From assembly GCA_016182335.1 (NCBI GenBank), contig JACOXK010000010.1, positions 1-32,328 on the forward strand: a stretch of DNA of 32,328 bases, given 5' to 3'. A program made the position numbers and the translations under genes. This document shows positions 1 to 32,245 of the stretch, piece by piece (within the stretch, counting starts at the first letter, position 1; every line of letters begins with the position of its first letter). Below the pieces are notes generated by a model that was not told the DNA's origin, did not search any database, and saw nothing but the letters and a program-made list of their open reading frames with translations. Origin of the DNA: Deltaproteobacteria bacterium. GTDB lineage: Bacteria > Bdellovibrionota > JACOXK01.

Positions 1-47
1 ACCTGCTGCTTACAAATCAGCTGCTCTACCAACTGAGCTACGCCAGC
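1..47 (-). tRNA. tRNA-Thr (anticodon UGU), 5' portion only; the 3' half lies beyond the window edge
   Basis: The reverse complement of 1-47 reads GCTGGCG-TA-GCTC-AGTTGGTA-GAGC-A-GCTGA-TTTGTAA-GCAGC-AGGT. This gives a 7-nt acceptor strand, a canonical D arm, and a 7-nt anticodon loop TT-TGT-AA. One A.G mismatch closes the anticodon stem. Confidence 0.75.
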
Positions 48-2124: not shown

Positions 2125-4376
2125 ACTGTTCTTTCCCCAATCCCTGGCACCCAGGGCGCAATAGTATCTTCAACGGGGAGCTCTATGATAAACATGGCTC
2201 CTTTATCTTCACTCGAAACAATACGAATAACTCCGTGGTGCTCTTCAATAATTCTTTGAACAATGGCAAGCCCTAGCCCCCCACCTTTCATTTTAGTTGT
2301 AAAATACGGAAGAAAGATTTTGCTGCGAAGATGATGATCAACTCCACACCCAGAATCACTAATCTCAATCACAGTGTGTTTTAAATAAGGATTGTATTTG
2401 ATGCATATCTTCATTTTTCCGGTCTTTTTCATAGCATCAATGGCGTTGTCAAAAAGGTTAATAAACACCCTTTTGATCTGATCCCTATCAACAAGCTGAA
2501 GCGGAACATCAGGCTGCTCTTCAAATAGAATTTGCACCTTTGGGTGAGCGATTTGATAGAGATCTATCACTTCCTTTAAAATAAGAGACACTCTATGGTT
2601 GTGAAATTTGGGTTGAGGTAACCTTGCAAAATCTGAAAACTCATCAATCATATCTTTTAAATCATCCACCTGATTAATAATGGTTTGCACACAGTCAGAA
2701 AAAACTTCCTTCTCAGGAATATCTGAATAACGCTTTCGTAAACGCTGAGCAGATAATTTAATGGGAGTCAGCGGGTTTTTAATTTCATGCGCAATTTGTT
2801 TGGCAATTTCTCTCCAAGCAGCCACTTTTTGAGCAGTGAGAAGCTCTGTTAAATCCTCAATAACTACAACCATGCCACTATAATCATTATCTTCGTTGCG
2901 AACACCAGCAACACTTGCAAGAAGGGTTTTGATCTGCCCTCCTGATGGAAATTGAAATTGTTTTTCATGGATAGCAATAGAATCCTTCTCGATGATATCG
3001 CACATAAACTCATCTACGGCTTTGAGGTATATTTGAGGGATGACTTCATGATAATGCCTCCCAACTACGTCTTTAGCACTCACACCAAATAGAGCTTCAG
3101 CCGAACGATTGATAGTTGTCATAAGTCCATAGGCATCCAAAGAAATGACCCCTGCAGTAATATTTCTTAAAATAGCCTCTATATATTTTCTGCGCTGATT
3201 TAATTCTTTATTAGCCTCTTGAAGACTGCTATGAGCTTGGGCTATTTGCGCTCGATGGTTCTTAAGATCCAATGTCATTTGATTAAAGGATTGAGTGAGT
3301 GAATCAAATTCTTCAGCTGCCATTTGAGAAGGCAGATGTTGCAAATGAACATCAAGATTCCCAGAGGCAATTTCTTCTGTGGCTGAAGCTAAATTTTTAA
3401 TGGGTGTCGTTAATTGCCTCGCTAAATAAAATCCAAACCAGGTAGCCGTAAAAACGATCAGCAGTGTCATTAAAATGAGTAGGAGAAAATAGCTTGATTG
3501 AATTGATGGTGCAAACGGGTAGGTCGAAGAATAATCCTTATAAGTCGACTCAATTTTTTCCATGTGCATAGCCAGAGCCAACGGTGTAAAAAAATTGACG
3601 ACTAAAATACCATCCACTTTTTTTGAAGAGACCTCACGAAATACGGGAACAACGACTCGAACTAAATTTCCCTCACCAATGTTTTGCGTAAATCCAGAAG
3701 AGACACCCTTTAAAGCATTCAGAAGAGTTTCTTCTGGAGGTCTTGGAAAACTGTAGTCTGCATACCGAGAATCAGTGCTTGAATCATAGAGGGAGAGATC
3801 CCTAAAATAAAACTCTAGAAATGAAATTTGAAATTGTTCTCTGAAATGACTAAAACTTTTCTTAAAAAAATCTTTTTTACTATGTCTTAAAAGTTTTTCA
3901 GAGGAGACAAAATGGGAAATAACACCTGCGTACTGCTCCCCTCTTTCTTGAAACATTTTATAATAATTTCTGGAGATCTCTACCCCTCCTTTTAAAGATG
4001 CTTTTACTTGTGTATTAAACCATTTTCCAAAACTGTTATGAATGTAGAGAGCGGAAATTGTAAAAAGCAAAATAGTTGGAATAAGAGCAAAGCCCACAAA
4101 AACAACAATGAGTTTGGATTTTAGTTTGGCACCAAAAACACTATCTTTTCGTTCCAAGAAAATCTTAATAATATTTCTAAAAACAAGGAAAACTAATAAA
4201 CCTAAAAGCAATATATTAATATTAACGATGACAAAAAAAAGTAAACTTGTGACAAGTGATACCTTGGAAGAAAGTTTCGAAAGAGAAACCTCCAAAACTG
4301 TAAGTAGAGAAAAGACAAGTGTACATAAAAAGATAAGTCTTTTTTCTCGGCGTCTTCGCTGAATCTCAGATGACAT
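2121..4376 (-). CDS. ntrY: NtrY-like sensor histidine kinase (multi-TM, HAMP, PAS, HisKA, HATPase)
   Basis: The ORF is open to 4436 (TTG). The ATG at 4376, preceded by AAGGAA, starts at MSSEIQRRRREKR, a typical NtrY N-terminus. There are several hydrophobic segments. The H-box IAHEIKNPLTPIKLSAQRLRKR closely matches the NtrY signature. N box FDNAIDA and G box GGGLGLAIV are present. Confidence 0.85.
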   Translation of the reverse strand: MSSEIQRRRREKRLIFLCTLVFSLLTVLEVSLSKLSSKVSLVTSLLFFVIVNINILLLGLLVFLVFRNIIKIFLERKDSVFGAKLKSKLIVVFVGFALIPTILLFTISALYIHNSFGKWFNTQVKASLKGGVEISRNYYKMFQERGEQYAGVISHFVSSEKLLRHSKKDFFKKSFSHFREQFQISFLEFYFRDLSLYDSSTDSRYADYSFPRPPEETLLNALKGVSSGFTQNIGEGNLVRVVVPVFREVSSKKVDGILVVNFFTPLALAMHMEKIESTYKDYSSTYPFAPSIQSSYFLLLILMTLLIVFTATWFGFYLARQLTTPIKNLASATEEIASGNLDVHLQHLPSQMAAEEFDSLTQSFNQMTLDLKNHRAQIAQAHSSLQEANKELNQRRKYIEAILRNITAGVISLDAYGLMTTINRSAEALFGVSAKDVVGRHYHEVIPQIYLKAVDEFMCDIIEKDSIAIHEKQFQFPSGGQIKTLLASVAGVRNEDNDYSGMVVVIEDLTELLTAQKVAAWREIAKQIAHEIKNPLTPIKLSAQRLRKRYSDIPEKEVFSDCVQTIINQVDDLKDMIDEFSDFARLPQPKFHNHRVSLILKEVIDLYQIAHPKVQILFEEQPDVPLQLVDRDQIKRVFINLFDNAIDAMKKTGKMKICIKYNPYLKHTVIEISDSGCGVDHHLRSKIFLPYFTTKMKGGGLGLAIVQRIIEEHHGVIRIVSSEDKGAMFIIELPVEDTIAPWVPGIGERTV

Positions 4377-4447
4377 GTCTTCCTTATATGTTGCAGATTT
4401 ACAACAGGCAAGTCCTAGGTATTTTGTAAAACTCAAGCCTAAAGTTT

Positions 4448-17496: not shown

Positions 17497-18423
17497 TCAT
17501 TCAGAGTCCGACGGGATTTTTTTCTTACTCCGAGGATGAGCTTTGTCATACATTTCAACAATCTTGTCAATGGAGAGATGGGTGTATTTCTGTGTCGTAG
17601 AAAGGCTTTCATGACCTAAAAGCTCTTGCACAAGCCGCAGATCAGCACCCGCTTCAAGCATATGTGTTGCAAATGAATGCCTCAAAGCATGCGGGCTTAT
17701 TTTTTTAGAAATGCGCGCACGATAAGAATATTTTCTGACAATTCGATCTATCTGGCGACTGGAAAGGCGCCTTCCAAGACAACTTAAAAAAAAAGCATCA
17801 CAACTTTCACCTTTTTTTTGCAAAACATTTCTCACATCGTAAAACTGTTTGAGAGATTTTTGAGCAAAACTCCCAATAGGAAGGATCCTCTCTTTTCTTC
17901 TTTTTCCAAAGACTTTGACACTGGAAAAATCACTTCCAAAACTAGAAAGATTCAAACCAACAATCTCAGAAAGCCTCATTCCTGTCGCATAGAAGAGCTC
18001 CAGCAAAGCTCTATCTCTTGCTTCTACTATTTTTGATTTGTCATTCTGAGCGATAGCGAAGGATCTCCCATCCAACACATTAAAAACCTCATCCACATTG
18101 AGAAAAACAGGTAATTTATGCCTTCTTCGTGGAAGAGAAATGCTTGAAAAAATATCTTCTAGAATATATCCCTCTCGTTTCAGGTACTTAAAAAAAGATT
18201 TCAAAGCGGATAACTTTTTTGAAATCGTAGCCGAATCTAGGTCAGTAAACAAAGAAGCCACGTAAAGTCTAGCTTTTGAAATAGTAAGATTTTCAAGCTC
18301 CACTCCTTGTTGTTGAAGCTGCTGCAAAAAATCTAAAATATCTTTTCTATAAGAACGAAGTGTCAGAGGCGATGAATTTTTTTCATACTTAAGATAATTT
18401 AGGAATTTTTCCAATAGACTCAT
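17497..18423 (-). CDS. xerC: tyrosine recombinase XerC/CodV-type
   Basis: Core-binding N-terminal domain (YLKYEKNSSPLTLRSYRKDI), ARDRALLELFYATGMRLSE, HALRHSFATHML, LGHESLSTTQKYTH. ATG 18423 is the second Met of the track ORF. It overlaps the upstream stop as TGATG. Confidence 0.9.
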   Translation of the reverse strand: MSLLEKFLNYLKYEKNSSPLTLRSYRKDILDFLQQLQQQGVELENLTISKARLYVASLFTDLDSATISKKLSALKSFFKYLKREGYILEDIFSSISLPRRRHKLPVFLNVDEVFNVLDGRSFAIAQNDKSKIVEARDRALLELFYATGMRLSEIVGLNLSSFGSDFSSVKVFGKRRKERILPIGSFAQKSLKQFYDVRNVLQKKGESCDAFFLSCLGRRLSSRQIDRIVRKYSYRARISKKISPHALRHSFATHMLEAGADLRLVQELLGHESLSTTQKYTHLSIDKIVEMYDKAHPRSKKKIPSDSE

Positions 18424-19757
18424 CAAAAAAATAGGTGCCCCATGATAAAGAAGGAGTCAGATGGCGTAATATTTGTGCCAGCATTAAAGCTCTCTTCATA
18501 TCGATAATAGGGCTCAAGAGCTGCATTTTTCCAAAACTTCCAACGCCCGCCAAGAGTAACACGATGTGTGTAGTCAGCCAAAAACTGGGCATCCTCAACA
18601 AATCCATCATAGCGTGCAAGCACATTTAAATTTTTAAGAAGATCATAGGATAGGCCCACATAAGCCGATAAAGAATTTTTAGCTGCAGTAGGTTTATCTT
18701 TGGCAAAAGCTGCCTCTGCAAATAATGAAACAGCTCCCCATCTTAAAGAACCATAAGCATCAAAGACTTCAATGTTTCGATCTTGATATTCTTGCGAAGA
18801 CGCATTTCTTTCATAAATAAAAGAAAACCCAATGAGTGACGACAATTTCCAGATTTGACCTTGATAACCAAGGTTTGCGGTCAAAACCTGCTCACTTTTT
18901 GTCACTGTTGTGGGCTGAATTTCGTATTTTTCAGGATACCTTTTTCCAAATGTAAGACTCATCTTATAAAACAGGTCGTGCGTCGATCCAAACATAAGTC
19001 CCAGATCTCGCGTATCAATTCCAACGTGGAGTTGATCAATTAAAAAAGCTGTATGGTCTTCGTACCCAAATCCAAACGGAACTTGAAACATACCTGCCTG
19101 AACATAGTGTTTTTGTAAAAATTCATATTGTAAATAAGACGTAAGCAGTGGGTTAGGTACATTGTATGACAGTACAAGCTGTAGAGAATCTAGAAACTTC
19201 ACAGCTACTCCAGGTTCTGCCTGCATCATGAAAAAAGTTTTGGGTTTTGGCCCTCCTTTGATGATCATAGACCAAAACCTCGCATTTCCAAAAAAACGGG
19301 TCTTATCCCAAAGAGTTTCAAAATAAGTTTTTTGAGATTTGGGTGCAACTGCCGTTTTCTGAGGAGAAGTTTTGTGCATTCCTCGCTTTAAGCGTTGTGC
19401 AACAATGATGGGTGGCTTCTTTTTAAGAGGTCTTTTTTTCTGTACTGTGACTATTTTTTTAGGGTGTGTTTTTTTCTCCTGATATCCCACAAGCGAATTA
19501 TTATTTCTATAATAAACACCTGCGTCGTTGAGTGGGCCTCCACCCTTTTGGCTGATATGGCAATAGCAACACTTTTTTTTCTCAAGAATTGTATATCTCG
19601 GAAGAGCCTGCAGAGAGCCACTATAAAATGTCATGAGGAGCAATATCGCGCAAAGCACTGCAATTCTTACATTCCAATGAAATTTATATAGACGCTTGCG
19701 TAGACTTAGTTTCAAAAGATTCGTCACACAGGATGTCACAAGAGTTATTTTTATCAT
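18423..19757 (-). CDS. putative outer-membrane beta-barrel protein with an N-terminal CxxCH motif
   Basis: 444 aa as tracked. Signal-like segment VRIAVLCAILLLMTFYSGSLQA-LP, then KKKCCYCHISQKGGGP, a Lys/Pro-rich linker, and alternating amphipathic segments. It ends in HLFF (aromatic C-terminus typical of OMPs). The start is uncertain: ATG 19757 or in-frame TTG 19715, neither with a clear SD. Confidence 0.65.
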   Translation of the reverse strand: MIKITLVTSCVTNLLKLSLRKRLYKFHWNVRIAVLCAILLLMTFYSGSLQALPRYTILEKKKCCYCHISQKGGGPLNDAGVYYRNNNSLVGYQEKKTHPKKIVTVQKKRPLKKKPPIIVAQRLKRGMHKTSPQKTAVAPKSQKTYFETLWDKTRFFGNARFWSMIIKGGPKPKTFFMMQAEPGVAVKFLDSLQLVLSYNVPNPLLTSYLQYEFLQKHYVQAGMFQVPFGFGYEDHTAFLIDQLHVGIDTRDLGLMFGSTHDLFYKMSLTFGKRYPEKYEIQPTTVTKSEQVLTANLGYQGQIWKLSSLIGFSFIYERNASSQEYQDRNIEVFDAYGSLRWGAVSLFAEAAFAKDKPTAAKNSLSAYVGLSYDLLKNLNVLARYDGFVEDAQFLADYTHRVTLGGRWKFWKNAALEPYYRYEESFNAGTNITPSDSFFIMGHLFF

Positions 19758-20860: not shown

Positions 20861-20876
20861 TGGCATAAGCTTTGCT
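20861..20876 (+). promoter_or_regulatory. sigma-54 (-24/-12) promoter match TGGCAT-aagct-TTGCT
   Basis: GG at 20862-20863 and GC at 20874-20875 are exactly 12 nt apart. 9 of 10 fixed consensus positions of TGGCAC-N5-TTGC match. It lies about 100 nt upstream of the PilZ gene. Confidence 0.65.
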
Positions 20877-20977: not shown

Positions 20978-21319
20978 GTGAATCGAAGAAAGCATCAGAG
21001 AGCCCCAGTCGAGATTTGGGTTAAAGAAGAAAACGGTGATTTCTTCTTTACCCATCGGGCTAGTAATATCAGCGTCGGTGGTTTTTTTCTGGAAAAAAAA
21101 GTTTTTAGGATAAAGAGTTCAGCAACTTTTTTTTTTCGACTTCCCACTTCAGATGAATTAATAGTTGTGCGCGGGCGAAGCGTTTATGATACGGCATTGG
21201 ACCCTGACAAAACATCAATTGGAACCGGCATTCAGTTTACCGATCTCTCCTTAGATGCAAAAAAGCTGATTCACGAATATGTCACAACTTTTTCCCGTTC
21301 AAAACGTTCAACCAGTTAG
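20978..21319 (+). CDS. PilZ domain protein (putative c-di-GMP receptor)
   Basis: 113 aa. RxxxR motif (RKHQR) at the N-terminus and the (D/N)xSxxG motif (NISVGG). GTG start with GAAGGG about 10 nt upstream. Confidence 0.8.
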   Translation: MNRRKHQRAPVEIWVKEENGDFFFTHRASNISVGGFFLEKKVFRIKSSATFFFRLPTSDELIVVRGRSVYDTALDPDKTSIGTGIQFTDLSLDAKKLIHEYVTTFSRSKRSTS

Positions 21320-22534
21320 AATAACAGAATGATATTCCTTGTTTTTGAGAGCAGCAAGAATCTGTTCAATATGCTCTTGACCTTTCGTTTCAAGAGCTAA
21401 AATGACATCTGTTTCTCCAAAAGCCAGTCCTTTGGCCAACCTATCATGTTCGATTTGTAAAATATTAGCGGATACTTTGAACAAAACTTCAGTAAGTGCG
21501 TGTAAACTTCCGGGCTTATCAGGCAGCTTCACACTAACACGAAGCAGCCTGCCCTCATGAGCAAGGCCACGTTCAATAATTTTGGAAATCATGGTGACAT
21601 CGATATTGCCACCACTTAAGACAACAACCGTCTTTCCTTTAACATACCCCTTGAGAGCAGCCGCCATGGAGGCAGCTCCTGCTCCCTCAACGACCGTTTT
21701 AGATCGCTCCATAAGAAGTAAAATAGCTTGGGCAATCTCTTCTTCAGAAACAAGGACGATATCATCCACATATTTTTGAATGATTTCTAAATTTTTTGGA
21801 CTTACTTTTTTAACAGTAATACCCTCTGCAATAGACCCTTTGGGGTTGTCTGCGTCATTCCGAGTGTAAAGAGAAGTCGATATTTCTTCTCTCTTAAACA
21901 TTTCATACATCGAAGGGCAGGCTTGAGTCTGAACACCAATCACTTGCGTCTTTGGGGAGAGCTCTTTAAGTGCAATAACAATTCCAGAAATAAGTCCACC
22001 TCCACCTATTGGAACAAGAACTCGATCAAAACCTTGGAGGTCTTCTATAAGCTCCAGAGCAATCGTCCCTTGCCCTGCAATAATATCGTCATCCTCATAG
22101 GGGTGAACAAAAATACACTTTTCTTCTTCACAAAATTTCTTGGCCCCGTGATAAGCTTCATCATAATTACTTCCTTGAAGAACAACGCGCGCTCCAAAAC
22201 CCTTTGTGGCAATAACTTTCACATAGGGTGTTGGTTCTGGCATAAAAATTGTAGCTTTAATCTCCATCCGATGAGCAATAGAGGCAACACCTTGAGCATG
22301 GTTACCAGCTGAGGCAGCAACGACACCTCTAACTTGTTCTTGTTTAGAGAGTTTCATAATTCTATTGGTAGCTCCTCGTATTTTAAAAGAGCCTGTGTGC
22401 TGAAGGTTTTCCATTTTCAGATAGAGAGGGGATCCCACCATTTTTGAAAAATGACGCGTCTCTTTAAGCGGGGTTCGAACAAGCTGATCCTTGATCAACT
22501 CATATGCTTCTTTGATGTCTCTTAAATTAATCAT
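21308..22534 (-). CDS. ilvA: threonine ammonia-lyase (threonine dehydratase) with C-terminal ACT-like domain
   Basis: 408 aa. PLP-lysine motif HTGSFKIRGA, ASAGNHAQGVA, and the glycine loop PIGGGGLISG. The C-terminal ~80 aa is regulatory-domain-like. Confidence 0.9.
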   Translation of the reverse strand: MINLRDIKEAYELIKDQLVRTPLKETRHFSKMVGSPLYLKMENLQHTGSFKIRGATNRIMKLSKQEQVRGVVAASAGNHAQGVASIAHRMEIKATIFMPEPTPYVKVIATKGFGARVVLQGSNYDEAYHGAKKFCEEEKCIFVHPYEDDDIIAGQGTIALELIEDLQGFDRVLVPIGGGGLISGIVIALKELSPKTQVIGVQTQACPSMYEMFKREEISTSLYTRNDADNPKGSIAEGITVKKVSPKNLEIIQKYVDDIVLVSEEEIAQAILLLMERSKTVVEGAGAASMAAALKGYVKGKTVVVLSGGNIDVTMISKIIERGLAHEGRLLRVSVKLPDKPGSLHALTEVLFKVSANILQIEHDRLAKGLAFGETDVILALETKGQEHIEQILAALKNKEYHSVILTG

Positions 22535-25302
22535 TGCAAAAATTCTGCTGCACGAAGTTCAAGAACTTTCCTATCCTCTAAACCCATGCGATACTCATGC
22601 TGCAAATCATGCATTTTGGCAAGAGAAACGGCACCCGAGTGTGCTAGTTTTTGCATATTTTCAATCTTGTGGCGATAGACCGCTATGTTTTCAAGAGTCA
22701 GCTTAAGCTGCTGCGGATTAAAATTCTTGGACTTAGCTTCTTTTTCCATAAGATCTAAAAGATAGAGATTTTGTTTAGCCTGATAGGCATAGGCTGTAAG
22801 ATTGATTTCTTCCCACTTAATGGCAGAAGGACTTAACTCATACAAACCCTTCGGCTTATTTTGAATTTCTCTTTGAAGGTTCTTTTTTTCTGCCGTTAAT
22901 TTTTGCAAAGCACTCGACTTATTATTTTGAATTTCTTGCATCCAAGTTTGCAACTCGCGTTTCCAATCGCTTCTGAGTCGATAGGGTTCTAGAATCTTCT
23001 TCAACCCTTCTTTATCGTTTCGGTCTAGATATTGTTGCACCGTTTCTGATAAAGAAGCTGATTGATTGTCTATTGTTCTGAATTTCAATAATTTGTTATC
23101 TGCAAATACACTTTTAAAAAAAAGAAACTCTTGAAGAAAAGATTGCCACGCCTGCTGTCGCAGGCTCGCAATGACAGAAAAAGTATCCCTTCGCAATTTC
23201 TCTCTCTGTGCCAACCCCTGCTCCATAATCCTACGCGCAACATCGGGTGCCGTAGGGATAATAGTGTACATATACTGTAATTTCTGAATCCTATTCATCA
23301 CATTATTATATTCTAGAATGGCTTCATTTCTTCTTTCATAAAAACGCGCTATGCGAGAAGGCCTATAACCACCTCTGAGAAGCCCCCCACGGGTAGAGAG
23401 ATTTCTTTTATTTGTTTGATACTTTTCAATAAGCGATGGAAGCTTGCGATACAGTTGTTCCACCTCCACTTCAATGAGACTTCTGGCAGAGTTAATAGCA
23501 ACAAGTGGGTCCACAATGGCACTGGCAGGAGGAGTTTGGCCTGCTTGCGCATTATTGGCCGCCGTTTGAACATTATTTAAGTTTTGTAAACTCGAATCCC
23601 AACCGAAAACTTCAGAATTTCGAAGTTGAGCAGCCCGAAGATGTGAGCCAAACGTAACGTTATGGGGGCTACTTCGTGTAAGCCTCTGGTTGTACTCTGA
23701 GGAAGATTGACCCATGTCGGAAATCCCTTGATTTAAGTGATCCACAAACGTTCTGCCCCTGCGACTATCGAAAACCTGGCCTCTGACCGCATTTGAAAAT
23801 CTGTTATCAGTCGGTCTGTATGAAAGTGCATTAGAGTCAGCTCGTGGCAATAGCCCATTGTAGCCTAGGCCGGCCAAATTTCTGGCGGATGGGTCCGTCA
23901 TGTTAAATCCCTGTGCACCCTGGGGATAAGGATTTCCACCCAGTCCTGCTAAAGCCAAACGTTGTTCAGGACTCAAAAGATGGGGTGCTATGCCACCTCC
24001 TGTAAAAGGATTGCCACCAACCATCAAAGCCTGGTTCAAAGCATCGTCTGGGATAACATCAGCATCGATAGGGGGCCTCATAAAAGATGCAGCTGGGTCC
24101 AGAGGTTGCCCATCTTCACTTGAAATGGCTGTAAAGGCCATGGCTAAACCACGCGCTGCTTGAAATGTATTGTCATCTGCCCCATCGTTATAAAGGCGGT
24201 ACATGGCAATTCCACTTGTCAGAGCCCCAGCAAGGCTTGAAAGCGCTCCCACCGCTTCTGGGCTCGCAATGGATTCTGAAAGACTCTCCCATGTTCCTTC
24301 ATCTTCAATTCCATAAACTCTTTTACACACCTGTTCATAAGAAAGATTATCTGCAGGGTGTGTTCCGTGAGCATTGTTCTTTTTTTCTTCATGAAAAATT
24401 CCCGCCAATGATTCTCTAAGTAGAAGACCTTCTTCCGTTTCTGCCTTTTCTCGACCTAAAGCTACAGCTTTTTCTAAACGAACTAATTCAGCTTTTTCTA
24501 GCTTTTCAACCTTCAAAGCTTGAGTAGGTAAAAGACTTTTTCCATCTCTTTTAATTTCTACTTCATTGAGTAAATTTTGACTTAAACGTGCAAATAGGTC
24601 TTTTCTTTCTGTCAACATTTGTTTGCGAGCATCATTTTTTTCATTCTTAATTTTTTCATCTATGACTTTGATATAATCATTAAAAACAGCTTTTCTCCAT
24701 TGGGAGACGTATTCAGCTCTTTCTGAGTTAAAATGACCGTTTTCATCTGTTAAATTATTTAATTCACTATTCAAAGCATTTAACCAGGTTTTATCTAATT
24801 CTAAATCTTCTCTTGTATAGGCGCCATTTTTTGCAGTTGTTGATTCTTCAAAATCATTCATGAATTTGTATTCAGTATGAAGAAGATCACCCCTTGCCTG
24901 AAGGATATGAATTCGATACAGAGCTTCTATATTCTTTTTATTTTTCTCTAGATTTTCAAGCTTAGATAACAAATTACTAATTGCCTTTTTTCTTTCCGCT
25001 GACAATTTATTAAAAACTTCTCTGGAGAATTGAGAACCTGGTCCCCAGAGAAACTTTGGCTGTACTAGTGGTACACTGATTGCCCTCTCCACTTCTGAGC
25101 GTGTTTTTTTAATCTCTTCCTCAATTCCCACCAAAGTATCCAGCTTCGTCTTTGCATCTTCATTAAAATTCTTTTCAAAAAAAGCAGGACTGTCTGCCAA
25201 TCGAAGAGGCATGGCCACATCTGGTGCTATAAGACGATAGGACACGTAAGAATACCCAGGCCAAAATGCTAAGAGCACAATGATAAAAACAACACGTTTC
25301 AT
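22531..25302 (-). CDS. large exported coiled-coil protein with a central Gly/Asn/Pro-rich low-complexity region (hypothetical)
   Basis: 923 aa. SD AAGGAG 8 nt upstream. N-terminal hydrophobic segment MKRVVFIIVLLAFWPGYS. There are long E/K/L/N-rich helical stretches. The central segment is GGNPFTGGGIAPH...AGLGGNPYPQGAQGFN...LAGLGYNGLLP. The stop overlaps the ilvA start (ATGA). Confidence 0.85.
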   Translation of the reverse strand: MKRVVFIIVLLAFWPGYSYVSYRLIAPDVAMPLRLADSPAFFEKNFNEDAKTKLDTLVGIEEEIKKTRSEVERAISVPLVQPKFLWGPGSQFSREVFNKLSAERKKAISNLLSKLENLEKNKKNIEALYRIHILQARGDLLHTEYKFMNDFEESTTAKNGAYTREDLELDKTWLNALNSELNNLTDENGHFNSERAEYVSQWRKAVFNDYIKVIDEKIKNEKNDARKQMLTERKDLFARLSQNLLNEVEIKRDGKSLLPTQALKVEKLEKAELVRLEKAVALGREKAETEEGLLLRESLAGIFHEEKKNNAHGTHPADNLSYEQVCKRVYGIEDEGTWESLSESIASPEAVGALSSLAGALTSGIAMYRLYNDGADDNTFQAARGLAMAFTAISSEDGQPLDPAASFMRPPIDADVIPDDALNQALMVGGNPFTGGGIAPHLLSPEQRLALAGLGGNPYPQGAQGFNMTDPSARNLAGLGYNGLLPRADSNALSYRPTDNRFSNAVRGQVFDSRRGRTFVDHLNQGISDMGQSSSEYNQRLTRSSPHNVTFGSHLRAAQLRNSEVFGWDSSLQNLNNVQTAANNAQAGQTPPASAIVDPLVAINSARSLIEVEVEQLYRKLPSLIEKYQTNKRNLSTRGGLLRGGYRPSRIARFYERRNEAILEYNNVMNRIQKLQYMYTIIPTAPDVARRIMEQGLAQREKLRRDTFSVIASLRQQAWQSFLQEFLFFKSVFADNKLLKFRTIDNQSASLSETVQQYLDRNDKEGLKKILEPYRLRSDWKRELQTWMQEIQNNKSSALQKLTAEKKNLQREIQNKPKGLYELSPSAIKWEEINLTAYAYQAKQNLYLLDLMEKEAKSKNFNPQQLKLTLENIAVYRHKIENMQKLAHSGAVSLAKMHDLQHEYRMGLEDRKVLELRAAEFLQ

Positions 25303-25442: not shown

Positions 25443-25458
25443 GGGCATAGAAGTTGCA
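25443..25458 (+). promoter_or_regulatory. sigma-54-like (-24/-12) promoter gGGCAT-agaag-TTGCA
   Basis: GG at 25444-25445 and GC at 25456-25457 are 12 nt apart. It departs from TGGCAC-N5-TTGC at two positions (G for the first T, T for the last C). It sits in the divergent intergenic region, oriented toward the 591-aa gene. Confidence 0.5.
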
Positions 25459-25555: not shown

Positions 25556-27331
25556 TTGATATCTTTTTTTGTTCTGTTTCATCAGGGCTTTGCACTTCCG
25601 CCTGAAGCCCAACCTAATGCTGCCGTTATAGAATCTTTTCTAAAACACCCGGATAATCACAGCGTACGCATGTCTGAAAAAGCCATGAATGACCTCATTC
25701 AATTTTATTTTAATGCAACGAATATTCGACTCCTCTTGTCTTATCTCAAATTACTCAATTCAAGAAATCATCTTTTTACGACCTTTCCAGATTTGGAAAA
25801 ACAACTAGGACCAGTTAAAACCAAAGATATCATCTCCCATCTTGATATTCGAAATGAAGAGTCTTCAAGTGAATCTGCGCATCTATACTTGCCAGAAACT
25901 CGATTTCGCTTTGCAACACAGAAAAGCATATCAAGATTAAAATTAAGATTAGATGCCCAGAACATTTGGGGTTCTCTTGATTTTCCGGAAAATAGTTTTC
26001 GTGTTAGTCTCGTCATTCTTGATGGGGTTCCAGCCATCAGATGCGATGTTAACATTCCTCTTGAATTTCGAGTCAGCGTCCGCGGCACAGCACGGCTGAA
26101 AGCATTCGGCTCCTTCCGACTAGGTTCAGTGAGTGGCAGAGTGAAGGTTCGAGATTTTAGAGGAGCCTTCTACATTCAACTTGCAAAAAATCCCACAAAG
26201 GGACAACTTCAGCTGGTCTTTAAAGAACATGAAAACCCAGATAAAAAATTAGCCTTCAAAGATTTTGGGTGGGAAGGCAACAACCTAGGAAATATTGCCT
26301 GGAAACGCTTTTTCAGAGCCAAAGTAAAGAAAATTTTTGACAATATTGCGTTGGATTTTCAAAGTGGAATTCTTTATGCCTTCAGAGAAATTGTACTAGC
26401 ACAGCCAGCGAATTTTATGCTTACAAATCATGTGAATGGTGTGCGTCTTCTCTATAATATAACGACTTCTACAAAACTCTCACCTCTCGACCCAATCGTG
26501 CTTCATGACGCATACGGTGCTCCAGAATCGAAACAATTATTGTTTAGATATCAAACAGAATATACCTATTCATCAGAGAGCGCTTTACTTCCAGAAAGAT
26601 GTGCTCAGGAGGTGTTACCACCCGCTGAGTTATTCCAATTTTCGACAGAATATTTTCAACCCAATGGAGCGCAGGGCGCTTTTAAAAATCTACTCGAAAG
26701 CAGTGATCAAGTTGACTTTGGTGTCCAATTACCCGCTTCATTGATTGGAAAAATAATTTATTATCAAACCATGCGAGGCGCATTTTGTTTCAATTGGGAC
26801 ACTTACTACTACAATCACACTTTTCACAGACTTCAGGCCTTACCTTTTGGAGCACTCGAAATTAAAACTAACAAATCTCTGCTTGAAAATAAAAATTTTC
26901 AATTTTCGCTCCCTATGCGATATCAGTTTAATTCCCGCGCCACTTGGCAAGACAGCTCTTGTTTTAATAGAGAATGCATCGGTACGCTGGTTGGTACCTA
27001 TGGGGTTAGATTCGGCAATGGCCACATTATTTTAAATTTAAACAATCTTGTGCTTTTCGATTCAAATAATCAAAAAGAATTTGAGTTTGGTATTGATGGC
27101 AGTCCAGTACAATTGGGACAGATTTTACGAGCTTCTATATCGATTTTCTCAAACTTCTATTCTCATCTTTCCGATTATTTTTCGGACCCTTTTCCTGGGT
27201 TGATAGAAACGCAAAAATTAAAATTTACAAAAATGCTTTCTCTTGATCCGGCTATCGATGATGGTGATGACAACTTCAGAACTCCCGAAAACTTCTTCTT
27301 TACTTTTAAACTGCCAGACTCTTTGTTCTAG
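25556..27331 (+). CDS. hypothetical exported protein (591 aa as tracked); the 5' end is unresolved
   Basis: Long ORF with no recognised motif. The tracked TTG start has no SD. The frame is open from 25517 and there encodes a good signal-like segment (ILKLRIQIFLISFFVLFHQGFA). An SD-preceded ATG at 25507 is one nucleotide out of frame (see findings). Confidence 0.8.
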   Translation: MISFFVLFHQGFALPPEAQPNAAVIESFLKHPDNHSVRMSEKAMNDLIQFYFNATNIRLLLSYLKLLNSRNHLFTTFPDLEKQLGPVKTKDIISHLDIRNEESSSESAHLYLPETRFRFATQKSISRLKLRLDAQNIWGSLDFPENSFRVSLVILDGVPAIRCDVNIPLEFRVSVRGTARLKAFGSFRLGSVSGRVKVRDFRGAFYIQLAKNPTKGQLQLVFKEHENPDKKLAFKDFGWEGNNLGNIAWKRFFRAKVKKIFDNIALDFQSGILYAFREIVLAQPANFMLTNHVNGVRLLYNITTSTKLSPLDPIVLHDAYGAPESKQLLFRYQTEYTYSSESALLPERCAQEVLPPAELFQFSTEYFQPNGAQGAFKNLLESSDQVDFGVQLPASLIGKIIYYQTMRGAFCFNWDTYYYNHTFHRLQALPFGALEIKTNKSLLENKNFQFSLPMRYQFNSRATWQDSSCFNRECIGTLVGTYGVRFGNGHIILNLNNLVLFDSNNQKEFEFGIDGSPVQLGQILRASISIFSNFYSHLSDYFSDPFPGLIETQKLKFTKMLSLDPAIDDGDDNFRTPENFFFTFKLPDSLF

Positions 27332-27347
27332 AGACCCTGACAAAACA

Positions 27348-27689
27348 CTAAAATTCTCCTAAAAGCCTCAGCTTGTCTTTAATTTCCCTAAAGAGAATAA
27401 GGGGAAGTTTTTTAAGCTCCTTTTTGAATCGTTTATTGTCAATCGAACGACTTTGATCTATCATGACTTCGCAATCAAAACTATTTCCAGCACATCCTGA
27501 AGCTACAAATACCCTTAAAATATTCTCACCCACTAGCTTTGTTGTGCACGGCAATACCCATGTTGAAGAATGGTAAAATTGATTTAATAAATCAGTTTGA
27601 ATCACTAAAACGGGTCTGGATTTTCCAGCTTCGGGTCCAAATTGAGGGTTTAAATCTGCAAGGTAGAGATACCCGTGCTTAACCTTCAA
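27348..27689 (-). CDS. mazF: type II toxin, MazF/PemK family mRNA interferase
   Basis: 113 aa. GYLYLADLNPQFGPEAGKSRPVLVIQTD is the classic PemK/MazF N-terminal motif. The start overlaps the antitoxin stop (ATGA). Confidence 0.88.
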   Translation of the reverse strand: MKVKHGYLYLADLNPQFGPEAGKSRPVLVIQTDLLNQFYHSSTWVLPCTTKLVGENILRVFVASGCAGNSFDCEVMIDQSRSIDNKRFKKELKKLPLILFREIKDKLRLLGEF

Positions 27690-27943
27690 TCATCTATTCC
27701 TTCATTGGACAGGGGATCCAGATCTTCTTTTTCACTTTCGTAAGTTTGCGACACAGCTTGAGAAGCCTTATGATAAGCCTGGGAGAGGAATTCCTTATCT
27801 TTCTTTTCTTTTAATAAATAAAGACCTCTTCGAATTATCTCCACTTTGCTTTTTGCATGATAGGCCTTTACAAGATCCTGAACCAATTTCAGCTCCTTAG
27901 GAGGGAGTGTAATACTTGATTTCTTAACGGTATTTAATTTCAT
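27686..27943 (-). CDS. ribbon-helix-helix type antitoxin partner of MazF
   Basis: 85 aa from ATG 27943. The beta-strand plus two-helix pattern KSSITLPPKELKLVQDLVKAYHAKSKVEIIRRGLYLL is followed by an acidic C-terminal tail. The tracked start at 27979 is the TTG of the TTGACA -35 box and is rejected. Confidence 0.75.
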   Translation of the reverse strand: MKLNTVKKSSITLPPKELKLVQDLVKAYHAKSKVEIIRRGLYLLKEKKDKEFLSQAYHKASQAVSQTYESEKEDLDPLSNEGIDD

Positions 27944-27949
27944 ACCTTC

Positions 27950-27979
27950 ATAATACCTTAAGATGAGCCGAGATGTCAA
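27950..27979 (-). promoter_or_regulatory. sigma-70 promoter TTGACA-18 nt-TATTAT, ending 6 nt before the antitoxin ATG (leaderless or near-leaderless)
   Basis: The minus strand reads CATAATACTTGACATctcggctcatcttaaggTATTATgaaggtATG. The direct repeat AAGGTAT-tatg-AAGGTAT spans the -10 box and the start codon. Confidence 0.6.
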
Positions 27980-27993
27980 GTATTATGAAGTCC

Positions 27994-28425
27994 TTAGTGT
28001 TTCAACGGATCAATTACTTTGAGTCCCGGTATTTTTACAAAATTCTTGTCATGAGACCAGAGGCGGCTGGCTCCGTTTTCAAAACAGGTCAACCCTATTT
28101 GAAGATCAAAAAGGCGATACCCTACAATTTCAAGATCTGATGCTAGTTGTACTAACCTCTGTGAAAAACCTTGGTGTGGATACCACATTTGAAGTCCCAC
28201 ATCATTTTGAAGATTTTCAATAAATTCTTTGGCCTCATGTTGGGTCGATGGGCGCTCTGCCGAGGGATGAGTGATAACGCTAAAGAATTCAACAAAAGAC
28301 GCTAATGCAACGCCCCATCCTTGCGGATTTGCTGCTGCCTTTTCTATTATTTTTTGAGATTCCCTATGTTCTGAGCAGCTAGAGCGATGGGCATAAACAA
28401 GAATATTTGTATCTATCCCTATCAT
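27994..28425 (-). CDS. vapC: type II toxin VapC (PIN-domain ribonuclease)
   Basis: 143 aa. N-terminal MIGIDTNILVYA (first PIN acidic residue). A later acidic residue lies in WSHDKNF. The start overlaps the antitoxin stop (ATGA). Confidence 0.85.
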   Translation of the reverse strand: MIGIDTNILVYAHRSSCSEHRESQKIIEKAAANPQGWGVALASFVEFFSVITHPSAERPSTQHEAKEFIENLQNDVGLQMWYPHQGFSQRLVQLASDLEIVGYRLFDLQIGLTCFENGASRLWSHDKNFVKIPGLKVIDPLKH

Positions 28426-28685
28426 GTTAATTTTTTGTTTTTAAGCCATGCAACCATGCTTTCGCGATTTTGTAGCTCCAAATCTGGGGAAAGCTTACCC
28501 GAAACCGTCACCCAATGAATTATTTTAGGCTGCTTACGACTCTGCTGTTTTTGAAAAAGTGCTGCTTTAAGATAATTTCTCAGCGCTACCTCGACGACAC
28601 TCCTCAGGGGAATACGCATTTGAGCGGCTCTTTGTTTTGCTCGAATGAAGAGATTGTCCTGTATTTCAAGTGTCGTCTTAGCCAT
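28422..28685 (-). CDS. vapB: VapB-type antitoxin (Arc/RHH-like N-terminus)
   Basis: 87 aa. MAKTTLEIQDNLFIRAKQRAAQMRIPLRSVVEVALRNYL matches the MxTTLxIDDxL...AK...VVxxALR pattern of PIN-associated antitoxins. Confidence 0.75.
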   Translation of the reverse strand: MAKTTLEIQDNLFIRAKQRAAQMRIPLRSVVEVALRNYLKAALFQKQQSRKQPKIIHWVTVSGKLSPDLELQNRESMVAWLKNKKLT

Positions 28686-28746: not shown

Positions 28747-30471
28747 CTATCCCGCAAAATTAAAGTCTGGTCTTACAATTCCTTGTGGCGGCATGGGAGG
28801 TATGCCCCTGCCATCAAAAGGTTGTCCTGGCCCAAACGGTGAAAAATACATGTCAGGACGCTGTTGCATGAGATTATTTTGAAATCTCATAAGAGACCTA
28901 TTGGGTTCTGAGAATTGCAGCGACAAACCACCGCCAAATTGATTTTGATCAAAAGAACCACCCAATCTATAAGGTGCCCCATTGTGAGTGTATGGCGCAT
29001 TAAAATCTAACCCAAATTGACTGCCGCCTGAAAGTTGCGGATTAAAACTTTGAAAATCTGGGCCACCAGGTCCAAACATTCCGCCTGGACCACAATCCTG
29101 GCAAATAGTTCCAGGAAAACTCATTGTTGGAAATTGTGGGAACCCACCAAACGGGTCTCGCATATCAGGAGAGCCACCTTGAGAAGCAGTCTGAACCAAC
29201 CACATAGCAGCTTCTGCTCTTGATTTTAATTCCCACGCTTCGCGGGCGATTCTTTCTGCATCTTTCTTTGCACCCACTCCGTGCAGCGCTTCTGCTTCAT
29301 CAAATAATTTTTCAGCACGCACCATAAGAAGTTGGGCTTCATTCCAGTTGGCTTCCATTCGCACAGCTCTTGCATCTTCAATAGCCATGGGAAGCGGCTT
29401 TCCCTCTGCAATGTGGGATGTAACGAGCATCGAATCACGCAATTCTGTGATTTTTTTCAATTCTTCTTCCATCGCACGTTGAAATTCACAAAGTGCTTTG
29501 AGATCGTCACTTCTTTTCTTAAGATTTTTGTTGATGGACTTAATTTTCCCATCTTTAAGCTTTATTTCTTCTTCATGTTTTTCGGAAAGCTCAATGAGGC
29601 TTTGCAAATAACTAATTTTGTCATTATTACTTGCAATTTCTGCATCAATTCTTTGAATATCTTTAACTAGGGTATTTTTTCTTTCTACACTTCCATTATT
29701 TCCCGCAAGATAATCCAGTTCTTGAGTAGCCCTTTCTCTCTCTGTTTCTAAAATTTTTCCCTCTACTTCTAAACGAGATTTTTCAACCGCACTTGATGTG
29801 CCCACAATTTTTTGTTTTTCGTTTGTGAGACTCTCCATTTTATCTATGAGTGTCTGGTCTTTTCTGGACCATTTTAAAAGCTCTTTTTCATCAATCACGT
29901 GTGAGCCCTCTGCATTTATATTGGCTGAACGTAAAGTTGGAGTTACGTGCCCAGATGTTTGCCCTTGTTTCAATTTCTGGCTGCTTAAAGGGCCAAACGA
30001 ACCTGGCAAGAGACTTACATTGGAAACTTCTAAGTCCTCAATTTCGCTTAAATCATGCGCTTGAGTCTTCTTTCTATTTTCACTCTTATCTTCAATAATA
30101 ACCAGCTCTGACCATATCAGACGGCTCATGTGACCTGTATAAGTAGGATCCGACACTCCTGTATGTCTTTTAAGTTGTGTATCAATACTAGTAAGTCCAG
30201 AAATAAGCTTTTCCTGCGTTTCAGATCCAATATCAAGAAAACGCTCATCTGAAGTACTCAGCGGTTCTATTAAAGTATCAAGGCTTTTTTTAAGTTTAAA
30301 ATACTGCCTTTGTTCAAATGAATTTTTGTGATATCTCAAAAAATCTTTCATACTCACGAGTGTTTTTTTCACATCTGAAGTTTCATATCGATGGATAACA
30401 GTTTTTTCTGCATAACCGCTTAACAGCGGCATGCTAAATAGTAACAACAGAGCTAAACTGATATTTTTCAT
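28747..30471 (-). CDS. exported coiled-coil protein with a Gly/Pro/Phe/Gln-rich C-terminal low-complexity tail (hypothetical)
   Basis: 574 aa from ATG 30471 (AAGGAG 8 nt upstream). The tracked ORF extends to 30510. Signal peptide MKNISLALLLLFSMPLLSGYA. The long E/K/L-rich helical middle is followed by a tail: FGGFPQFPTMSFPG...FGPGGPDFQSFNPQ...QFGGGLSLQF...SPFGPGQPFDGRGIPPMPPQG. Confidence 0.85.
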   Translation of the reverse strand: MKNISLALLLLFSMPLLSGYAEKTVIHRYETSDVKKTLVSMKDFLRYHKNSFEQRQYFKLKKSLDTLIEPLSTSDERFLDIGSETQEKLISGLTSIDTQLKRHTGVSDPTYTGHMSRLIWSELVIIEDKSENRKKTQAHDLSEIEDLEVSNVSLLPGSFGPLSSQKLKQGQTSGHVTPTLRSANINAEGSHVIDEKELLKWSRKDQTLIDKMESLTNEKQKIVGTSSAVEKSRLEVEGKILETERERATQELDYLAGNNGSVERKNTLVKDIQRIDAEIASNNDKISYLQSLIELSEKHEEEIKLKDGKIKSINKNLKKRSDDLKALCEFQRAMEEELKKITELRDSMLVTSHIAEGKPLPMAIEDARAVRMEANWNEAQLLMVRAEKLFDEAEALHGVGAKKDAERIAREAWELKSRAEAAMWLVQTASQGGSPDMRDPFGGFPQFPTMSFPGTICQDCGPGGMFGPGGPDFQSFNPQLSGGSQFGLDFNAPYTHNGAPYRLGGSFDQNQFGGGLSLQFSEPNRSLMRFQNNLMQQRPDMYFSPFGPGQPFDGRGIPPMPPQGIVRPDFNFAG

Positions 30472-30534
30472 AATTCCTACTCCTTCTTTCACTTCACTTC
30501 TCATCTTCATATTCTCTCTGCATAGAAAAAAATT

Positions 30535-31941
30535 TTATAAAAAATCTCCTGTTCCTATCAAAAAACTCATTCGATCAAATCCTACTTGTGGCCCACTAAA
30601 TGCTGAAGAACCAGGAAAACCAAATCCATCATTAAAACGTGGTGCTGGCTGTCGTGACAATACGGGCACTTGCGATGCATCTGCAGGCCGCGCATCTCGT
30701 GATGGCGCAGACCCTGCGATGGCATCTCCAAATGTTCTGGCGGGGCGACTTTGAGATGCAGCACCCCTTCCATAACGCCCACCGCCACCACGAATTCTAG
30801 AAATCATTTCATCATAGCGTTGTGTTTGCTCTGCATTGGCCAATTGAGCTTCACGAATCAATCTCAATGCTGAGCCTGACTGGTTGATATCTGCAGAAAT
30901 CTCTCTGAACTCAACTTCAAACCCTTGCATTTTAGACTGAATCCCAGCTTGAGCTGCCATGTATTCTTGCGTCCACGTTGCAATTCTCTCAGTGAGTGCT
31001 TTTTTTCTATCTGTGTCTGCAGTTTTGAATTCGTCATCCAACTTTTGTCTTTCTGCAACGAGTGCTGCCACAGCTGCTTGATCTTGATTCAAAACAAGAC
31101 GAGCTTTTTGTTGAATGGCATGTCCCACTTCAGAAGCTTTTTGTTGAATTTGCATATCAAGGGAGGCTGCTGCTTCCAAAAGATATTGACGCTGCTCAGG
31201 GGTTGACTGTGCTATTTGCGCACTCACCTGGTCACGTTGAGATTTGAAACTGGCTAATTGTTGTTTTAAATTGGCAATGAATTGATCTGCACGATTAGTT
31301 TCCATCACAAGTCCAATGCTTTGAAACATTTTTTCAAAACCAGATTTTAAATCTTCAATTTTATTATCGTAATTATCTTTAAGAGATTTGATTGTTTCAT
31401 TAAGAGCCGCTATCTGCTGTGTAAAACCTTCTTGCATGACAATAACTGCTGCGCAGAGGGCTTTCACGAGGGGGCTTTCTTCTTTTTTCTCTTTAGATTC
31501 TTCGGACTCGCTTTGCTCATCCTCTGAATGACTGGTTACAAGTAAATCTTTATTGTCTTCTTGAATTTTTTTTATTTTCTTATCCAGTACAATTACTAGC
31601 TCATCTTTACTGGTAAAGGCTTCCAAGTCTAATGAGGAAAAGGTGATTTCAGCAAAAACTTTAGCTTTGCCTTCTAATGCAATTTCAACATTTGTTGCTT
31701 TTCCAGAAGCAATTGCCAAAATTTCAGCCTCTGAAAAGGTCTTTGATTCGACAAACTTTCTCACAGCAACGAGCTTTAGTAGCTCTTCTTTTTTCTCTAT
31801 TTTTCGAGCTTGATTATGATTTTTTACGTCCTCCAATCCTGTACCGGCTAGCGCAGCACTTAAAAAAACACTTAAAGCGGCAATAGCCACCACAATTCTT
31901 ATTAAAAATTTCCAATCAGCAACTTGTTTGATTGTTTTCAC
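30535..31941 (-). CDS. membrane-anchored or exported coiled-coil protein with a Gly/Arg/Pro/Phe-rich C-terminal tail (hypothetical)
   Basis: 468 aa. GTG start with GAGGAGG about 8 nt upstream. Hydrophobic N-terminal segment FLIRIVVAIAALSVFLSAALAG. An acidic Ser/Glu patch (SEDEQSESEESKEKKEE) precedes Q/A/E-rich helices. The tail is RGGGGRYGRG...PRFNDGFGFPGSSAFSGPQVGF. Confidence 0.85.
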   Translation of the reverse strand: MKTIKQVADWKFLIRIVVAIAALSVFLSAALAGTGLEDVKNHNQARKIEKKEELLKLVAVRKFVESKTFSEAEILAIASGKATNVEIALEGKAKVFAEITFSSLDLEAFTSKDELVIVLDKKIKKIQEDNKDLLVTSHSEDEQSESEESKEKKEESPLVKALCAAVIVMQEGFTQQIAALNETIKSLKDNYDNKIEDLKSGFEKMFQSIGLVMETNRADQFIANLKQQLASFKSQRDQVSAQIAQSTPEQRQYLLEAAASLDMQIQQKASEVGHAIQQKARLVLNQDQAAVAALVAERQKLDDEFKTADTDRKKALTERIATWTQEYMAAQAGIQSKMQGFEVEFREISADINQSGSALRLIREAQLANAEQTQRYDEMISRIRGGGGRYGRGAASQSRPARTFGDAIAGSAPSRDARPADASQVPVLSRQPAPRFNDGFGFPGSSAFSGPQVGFDRMSFLIGTGDFL

Positions 31942-32006
31942 TTCAGATTCCTCCTCAACATCAGCAACCTTCTCCTCACATAGGGTACTTCCACACTTAT
32001 TATCAA

Positions 32007-32022
32007 AGCAAGGGATGTGCCA
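32007..32022 (-). promoter_or_regulatory. sigma-54 (-24/-12) promoter, exact core consensus TGGCAC-atccc-TTGCT
   Basis: The reverse complement of 32007-32022 reads TGGCACATCCCTTGCT. GG (32021-32020) and GC (32009-32008) are 12 nt apart. It lies about 67 nt upstream of the GTG at 31941. Confidence 0.75.
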
Positions 32023-32245
32023 TGGCCCAAAAATAAATTTTAATATAATGATTTCAGTAAGTTAAGCTACTTACCCAGGGCGAGTGCACGGGATGCCTAA
32101 ACGTTATCTTATTTAGAAAGAGTGCTTAGAAAATAGTCACAGACTTGTTATTTTTTAATAATAACATAGAGTTATATAGTTTTTAAAACTCCTGAGTCGG
32201 TTGACTAATTATTGGACAGAATTTGATGGGGAAGATGAACATAAG

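Follow-up and report, generated by a model that had tools for sequence, protein, structure and literature searches.

What do two neighbouring genes encode, and how are they switched on, when neither product resembles a described protein? The question arises from a 32,328-nt stretch of bacterial DNA (the window), a chromosome fragment with a GC content of ~39%, in which two adjacent genes, named A and B here, lie on the minus strand. Gene A (30535-31941) starts with a GTG and encodes 468 aa; gene B (28747-30471) starts with the ATG at 30471 and encodes 574 aa. Both were delineated from the list of open reading frames (ORFs), AlphaFold2 (AF2) models and alignments. An earlier examination of the letters alone, referred to below as the sequence-only reading, had described them as a sigma-54-driven operon for exported coiled-coil proteins with FG-like tails. 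Our analysis indicates that A and B very probably constitute a genuine sigma-54-dependent operon whose exported products, members of an undescribed family, combine helices with disordered tails.

Related loci were reached via the neighbouring protein IlvA, and all of the relatives are uncultured metagenome-assembled genomes (MAGs). L002, labelled 'Deltaproteobacteria bacterium' NC_groundwater_499 at NCBI, has an IlvA 68% identical to that of the window. L001 and L082 belong to MAG GCA_964373325 (69%), and L007 is GWA2_38_16 (50%). Together with a further lineage (L083/L084), five genomes could be compared.

The Sigma-54 Promoter

On the minus strand, positions 32022-32007 read TGGCACATCCCTTGCT, an exact match to the sigma-54 -24/-12 element (TGGCAC-ATCCC-TTGCT). 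The C of the -12 GC dinucleotide (32008) lies 67 nt before the GTG of gene A at 31941, which follows a Shine-Dalgarno sequence, GAGGAGG (31950-31956, minus strand), ending 8 nt ahead of it. All of these elements are as the sequence-only reading had stated them. A search of the window for TGGCAC-N5-TTGC gave one exact match, compared with 0.02 expected from shuffled sequences.

The element is conserved. It precedes gene A in all five genomes, 67-114 nt before the start of A. L002 carries the same 16-mer as the window, TGGCAC-ATCCC-TTGCT, while the two A proteins are only ~26% identical. The other versions are TGGCAT-ACCAC-TTGCT (L082), TGGCAT-AGTGC-TTGCT (L083) and TGGCAT-GGCCC-TTGCT (L007). 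In a five-way alignment of the intergenic region, the promoter and its close flanks (TTGCTTTATTT...GTGAG) form one conserved island, the best-conserved block there. As the A proteins share only 22-32% identity and the promoter is nevertheless kept, this element is constrained far more strongly than the coding sequence.

Outside the promoter region, the same alignment contains a sole conserved block, TGT.TA.A.A.TAGTCAACC..CT.AAGATTT...TAAC, at 32170-32221 on the minus strand, a candidate upstream activator sequence. Its TAGTCAACC part is located 182-187 nt 5' of the -24 element in each of the five genomes. The divergent neighbour varies among the five loci (tmk, RNR or a gene for a 204-aa hypothetical protein), and so does its distance to the block. 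The fixed spacing despite this changing neighbour makes the block look like an activator enhancer, for which it is a candidate. Its dyad symmetry is weak, and it fits no enhancer consensus known to us.

The window also encodes an NtrC-type enhancer-binding protein (772-2124, minus strand), recognized by Pfam and by motif reading, with a receiver domain, an AAA+ sigma-54 interaction domain (Sigma54_activat, 1e-70) and an HTH_8 domain. An intact GAFTGA motif is present at residue 217, which indicates that the host genome uses sigma-54. The sensor kinase of the pair is encoded beside it (2121-4436). As the controller of A and B, this activator is only a candidate, encoded in the same genome. Like canonical promoters of the glnAp2, pspA, zraP and pilA type, the A-B promoter combines a TGGCAC-N5-TTGCW element, in which GG and GC are 10 nt apart, with a long 5' untranslated region and a conserved block near position -185, and the same genome encodes a GAFTGA activator of the NtrC family. 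The genes themselves belong to none of the known sigma-54 regulon classes. With the element kept in every genome, the upstream block at a fixed distance and an activator of the right type in the genome, the predicted sigma-54 control is as strong a regulatory claim as comparative genomics permits. The logic of sigma-54 and an enhancer-binding protein is textbook; the protein family placed under its control is new, having neither a described family nor a described structure.

Two further sequences of this type were noted. A second perfect sigma-54-type element, TGGCATAAGCTTTGCT, is located at 20861-20876 (plus strand), ~100 nt 5' of ORF 20978-21319 (plus strand), which encodes a 113-aa PilZ-domain protein (Pfam, 1e-9). 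Its position suggests that the same sigma-54 regulon also includes a receptor for cyclic di-GMP. In L002, no counterpart of this site was seen. A site with one mismatch, GGGCATAGAAGTTGCA, lies at 25443-25458 (plus strand), ~113 nt 5' of ORF 25556-27331 (plus strand). The 591-aa product of this ORF has no match in Pfam, PADLOC or PHROGs, and neither of the syntenic loci, L002 and L007, contains the ORF.

Operon Structure and Synteny

The adjacency of A and B is conserved in all five lineages, in line with the two-gene operon first proposed. The gap between them measures 63 nt in the window, 2 nt in L002, 1 nt in L007, 19 nt in L082 and 31 nt in L083/L084. In the window, A and B share a reading frame with one TAA in between, and two in-frame ATGs (30510 and 30504) precede the favoured start of B, the ATG 63 nt past the stop of A. 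Readthrough or an A-B fusion is therefore conceivable. However, B has its own predicted signal peptide and its own Shine-Dalgarno sequence (AAGGAG, 30480-30485, minus strand, found by sequence reading), and the orthologous loci contain separate B genes, which argues for two genes.

In the window, tmk, encoding thymidylate kinase, begins divergently from gene A near 32245. In L002 the order is tmk (minus strand), A' (419 aa from its ATG), B' (440 aa), C' (1060 aa) and ilvA; in L007 it is tmk, RNR (minus strand), A'', B'', C'' (1175 aa) and ilvA. L082 shows RNR (minus strand), A and B, the contig stopping inside B, and L083/L084 shows A followed by B. The synteny tmk|A-B-C-ilvA thus persists even in L007, whose IlvA is the most distant of those listed above, and points to a core gene set of the lineage rather than an accessory island. 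The pair is part of the core genome of a small lineage of uncultured Gram-negative groundwater bacteria that carry the NCBI label 'Deltaproteobacteria'.

The sequence-only reading had overlooked this synteny and the conserved third gene, C (22531-25302, minus strand in the window). Its 923-aa product has a signal peptide and contains coiled coils as well as a central region rich in G, P, N, F and Q. The gene directly follows B in L002 and L007 and is itself followed by ilvA. In the window, by contrast, insertions consisting of toxin-antitoxin genes and one further gene separate C from B. Between B' and C' of L002 lie a hairpin and a sigma-70-like promoter of good quality (TTGATC-17-TATAAT), indicating that A-B is the sigma-54 unit and that C is transcribed separately, coupled to ilvA. 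C is a probable functional partner of A and B.

C adjoins the start of ilvA in three genomes, with a 4-nt overlap in the window, abutting ends in L002 and again a 4-nt overlap in L007. The two genes occupy 22531-25302 and 21308-22534 (both minus strand) in the window, 6818-11203 in L002 and 6465-11203 in L007. This coupling of an envelope protein gene to the gene of an amino-acid catabolic enzyme is odd but conserved.

The inserted toxin-antitoxin genes of the window (27348-28685, minus strand) consist of two pairs, PemK/MazF and PIN/VapC, each with its upstream partner. In L083/L084, a MNT/HepT pair (956-1577) is inserted between tmk and A. With such insertions in separate lineages, the locus seems to be a hot spot for the insertion of toxin-antitoxin genes. 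The gap between tmk and A' in L002 is also enlarged (~690 nt versus ~300 nt in the window) and contains a GC-rich, hairpin-forming sequence at 3106-3560. This sequence could represent an insertion or an RNA not yet annotated; a scan of the intergenic regions with Rfam, this gap included, identified no known RNA.

Protein Architecture

A single hydrophobic segment, always N-terminal, is present in every A, B and C orthologue. In A of the window, the Kyte-Doolittle score over 19 residues reaches its maximum of 2.47 at residue 13. Residues 8-32 form a highly conserved peptide and hydrophobic helix (DWKF..R..AI.ALSVFLSAALA). The N-terminus of A is near-invariant (VLDWKFFLR-AVAI-AL-FLSAALA) among four lineages, while the remainder of the protein has diverged. 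This suggests more than a disposable signal peptide. It would rather be a retained membrane anchor with a short docking peptide on the cytoplasmic side.

After a small N-terminal region, A continues with an acidic Ser/Glu linker (around residues 139-156) and three long helices in the AF2 model (157-245, 248-307 and 310-385). Their hydrophobic periodicity is significant in the first two, at 3.64-3.68, and drops to 3.50 in the third. The tail of A (residues 386-468, nt 30538-30786) is disordered and consists of 17% G, 13% A, 12% S, 11% R, 10% P and 10% F. Short motifs are kept in it across orthologues: RTFGDA, [ND]DGF and a C-terminal G..[DN][FI][LI]. Composition and model thus agree with the anchor segment, acidic patch, long helix and Gly/Arg/Pro/Phe tail of the original description.

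Protein B opens with a Sec-type signal-like segment, as predicted from the hydrophobicity of residues 1-22. Residues ~24-194 are a genome-specific insert of ~170 residues without a counterpart in the orthologues. They are followed by confident helices in a coiled-coil region (195-430), the longest of which has a significant heptad-like hydrophobic periodicity of 3.44. The disordered tail (residues 431-574, nt 28750-29181) contains 18% G, 15% P, 12% F and 10% Q. The start, signal-like segment, helices and tail of B are all as first described. Export is predicted for all of the orthologues, and the combination of helices and a disordered tail is conserved in each of them, so that both the two-gene operon and this exported architecture are well supported.

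The DNA encoding the tails is richer in G and C than the rest of each gene (50.4% versus 38.5% for A, 45.7% versus 38.1% for B), and antisense ORFs occur there (30431-30754, 30639-30800 and 29035-29223), in agreement with the sequence-only reading.

In the AF2 models, the helices are confident and the C-terminal tails of A and B have a confidence score (pLDDT) below 50. Among the orthologues, it is the composition of the tails that is kept, not the sequence. Full-length tails contain 11-24% Gly (55% in a 22-residue fragment, L084), are rich in Phe, Met, Pro, Gln and Asn and have 0-18% charged residues. One B orthologue ends in GGM repeats; other B tails are Met-rich. The FG-like repeats that had been proposed turned out to be an effect of composition. 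The tail of B in the window has six FG and GF dipeptides, compared with 6.4 +/- 2.2 in composition-matched shuffles (P=0.64), and enrichment at P<0.05 was found in only one of five tails. The tails are thus not FG repeats in the sense of a motif. No tandem repeats were found in the DNA encoding them. In the B tails, aromatic residues show a weak tendency towards even spacing, with P values of 0.07-0.13 in three of the four orthologues.

The CxxC motif (CQDC) reported for B is present in the window but absent from all B orthologues. Instead, A, B and C each keep essentially one conserved Cys in the mature protein (C163 in A, C328 in B), an arrangement that would fit intermolecular disulfides. 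A joint loss of the paired Cys from A and B in L007 was considered and rejected, as the full listing of Cys residues showed it to be displaced, not lost.

Homology Searches

Neither A nor B has a match in Pfam or NCBIfam, even at E<=1, and none was found for their orthologues. Searches of A and B in PADLOC and PHROGs were equally empty, and PDB sequence and profile searches returned generic coiled-coil noise only. Foldseek with the AF2 models gave no match below E=0.05, only helical-bundle noise. Neither protein showed homology to TolA or to families of flagellar or pilus proteins, and searches of the literature yielded no description of such proteins.

An exhaustive phmmer search with A against 1.84 billion representative proteins recovered only four true relatives; those with public names are called 'hypothetical protein', the rest being unnamed. 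The pair was thus rightly called undescribed, and its family, with about five lineages in this collection, is very rare in public data yet core and syntenic in one uncultured groundwater lineage. One candidate from this search, P0007, was discarded as a repeat-derived artefact. The sole metagenome match of A, L081, was also discarded, being a high-GC actinobacterial solute-binding protein that shares 'DLDMQIQQKA' by chance. A genome scan with B gave no match, and A and B are not paralogues (hhalign probability 3.7%). The alignment of A found no relative on viral contigs; with PHROGs and PADLOC also negative for both proteins, nothing points to a phage or anti-phage defence protein. Word-indexed searches with A, B and the alignment of the C family returned the query only. 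This result is uninformative, an artefact of a prefilter saturated at 8000 candidates, since the tool missed members of its own query alignment such as C' of L002, a protein that the searched collection does contain. As this locus shows, conservation of a promoter can validate 'ORFan' genes where protein searches fail.

Possible Role and Alternative Explanations

In the mechanism that we favour, sigma-54 holoenzyme waiting at TGGCAC-N5-TTGCT would be activated by an enhancer-binding protein whose probable binding site is the conserved block ~185 nt upstream. A and B would be co-produced and both Sec-exported. A would probably be tethered to the inner membrane via its unusually conserved N-terminal peptide and helix, and B would be released into the periplasm. 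The long amphipathic or coiled-coil helices of A and B may then assemble, possibly locked by a disulfide through the single conserved Cys of each. The low-charge tails, rich in Gly, aromatic residues, Met, Pro and Gln, could engage in weak multivalent contacts, whether among themselves, with the comparable region of C or with the wall or the outer membrane. An inducible, envelope-associated scaffold or meshwork would result. As a whole, an operon encoding an envelope scaffold is the best explanation of the locus, with roughly even chances of being right; the specific scaffold mechanism just outlined is put forward tentatively and is rather unlikely to hold as it stands. It would represent a possible lineage-specific envelope structure, and coiled coils with low-complexity tails have rarely been documented outside the cytoplasm. 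Practical impact is limited pending a function or a structure.

Several points weigh against this interpretation. The conservation rests on a small sample of five genomes, and the most distant A orthologue (L007) lacks the N-terminal conservation on which the anchor is based. As this N-terminus ends in A-L-A|G, A could also be cleaved. The upstream block, which contains TGnTAnAA-like sequences, could be a second promoter of the sigma-70 type instead of an enhancer. The two AF2 models were built from single sequences (pLDDT 53 and 67) and are uninformative on oligomers. A three-protein assembly is a conjecture, given that C is driven by a promoter of its own and that other genes lie between it and B in the window. 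Finally, no homology match gives A or B a function.

The simplest alternative, a chance promoter-like sequence in front of spurious or decaying low-complexity ORFs, has practically no probability left. It could draw on the self-only search results and on the antisense ORFs of the low-complexity tails. However, the former are explained by the saturated prefilter, and four further genomes contain the orthologous pair, in which the ORFs are intact, the architecture matches and the promoter is conserved; the conservation of A and B effectively refutes this explanation. An unlikely but more serious alternative is that A and B are effectors of envelope stress, acting as periplasmic holdases or membrane-stabilizing proteins. 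The psp and zraP genes are sigma-54-dependent envelope-stress genes, and control by sigma-54 and an enhancer-binding protein is what A and B appear to share with them. The flexible Gly/Met/Phe-rich tails might bind unfolded or hydrophobic clients, by analogy with the GGM tails of GroEL, for which the GGM repeats of one B orthologue and the Met-rich tails of others would be suitable; the amphipathic helices of A, with their 11/3-like periodicity, might lie on membrane surfaces. Foldseek also reported a very weak, non-significant likeness (E>1) of B to the helical hairpins of PspA, Vipp1 and ESCRT-III. Predicted features shared with PspA/IM30 and ZraP/Spy/CpxP are an all-helical fold, assembly into oligomers or coiled coils, action at the envelope and a sigma-54 switch. 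Yet neither sequence nor significant structural similarity connects A or B to these proteins. No match to PspA_IM30, Spy/CpxP/ZraP or any chaperone family was obtained for A, B or their orthologues, and no psp or zra partner genes are located nearby. PspA is cytoplasmic, whereas B and probably A are exported. A and B are also three to five times larger than ZraP or Spy and carry long disordered tails rich in Gly and aromatic residues.

The adhesin, matrix or condensate role originally suggested was pure inference. That A and B are secreted or surface proteins, serving as adhesin or matrix or in the interaction with prey or host, appears distinctly improbable, also in the variant in which A, B and C form a tripartite alpha-pore-forming toxin of the ClyA/Ahl/Hbl type. 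As in the ClyA family and the tripartite toxins (AhlABC, SmhABC, Hbl, Nhe, XaxAB/YaxAB), long helical proteins that would be exported are encoded by adjacent genes, three of them here, in a genome that encodes many exported proteins without known domains. The top Foldseek matches of A are AhlC, XaxA and YaxB (E 0.07-0.5), and HlyE appeared in the profile search (E=0.37). None of these matches is significant, as is usual for any long helical bundle, and no Pfam match of the HBL/ClyA type was found. A and B contain no internal hydrophobic 'head' or beta-tongue segment, and such toxins have no long disordered tails. Moreover, no dedicated secretion system is encoded nearby, and the stable core-genome position by tmk and ilvA suits a core envelope role better than that of an effector. 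Lower still in probability is a periplasm-spanning tether or energy transducer like TolA or TonB, with A anchored, its tail reaching the outer membrane or wall, and B as its periplasmic partner. The topology is the same, in that an anchor at the N-terminus is followed by an extended helical region rich in A, Q, E and K and by an interaction region at the C-terminus; the strong conservation of the N-terminal helix of A would suit contact with a membrane partner, and the short motifs kept in the tail of A speak for it as well. On the other hand, no TolA (domain III) or TonB_C domain was detected in A, B or their orthologues (Pfam and NCBIfam, E<=1), and none of the five loci has TolQR- or ExbBD-like genes next to the pair. 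Anchors of TolA/TonB-type proteins carry the motif SHLS, of which that of A lacks the His. The tail is disordered rather than globular, and the modelled helices of A break into three segments, resembling a bundle more than a rod.

The most speculative possibility, to which we assign a very slim chance, is a sigma-54-induced gel or condensate, cohesive and of low complexity, that A, B and C would form at the cell surface or in the periplasm, with interlocking tails anchored by coiled coils. If true, it would be an extracytoplasmic bacterial analogue of the coiled-coil-anchored barrier of FG nucleoporins, and would provide the lineage with an inducible envelope layer for selective permeability or protection. 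FG nucleoporins of the Nsp1/Nup62-Nup57-Nup49 type and prion-like domains likewise combine a coiled-coil anchor with a low-charge region rich in G, F, Q, N, P and M; three proteins of one design and a tendency of aromatic residues to even spacing, here in the B tails, are also shared. The resemblance is purely compositional and implies no homology. In contrast to these nucleoporins, A and B are bacterial and would be exported, their low-complexity region is C-terminal, and they have no FG, FxFG or GLFG repeat unit.

Other Features of the Window

Housekeeping genes read in the window include pyrF, lpxC, dprA, smg, topA, pckA, hslUV, xerC, ilvA and the gene of a rhomboid protease. At 18423-19757 (minus strand), a 444-aa protein is encoded with a CCYCH motif (CxxCH, haem-binding) close to its N-terminus. 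Its C-terminal half is weakly porin-like and its last residues are ...HLFF. The protein is possibly a beta-barrel of the outer membrane that carries a haem-binding motif. A partial tRNA (1-47, minus strand), truncated by the edge of the window, was detected by Rfam with 31 bits and not by ARAGORN.

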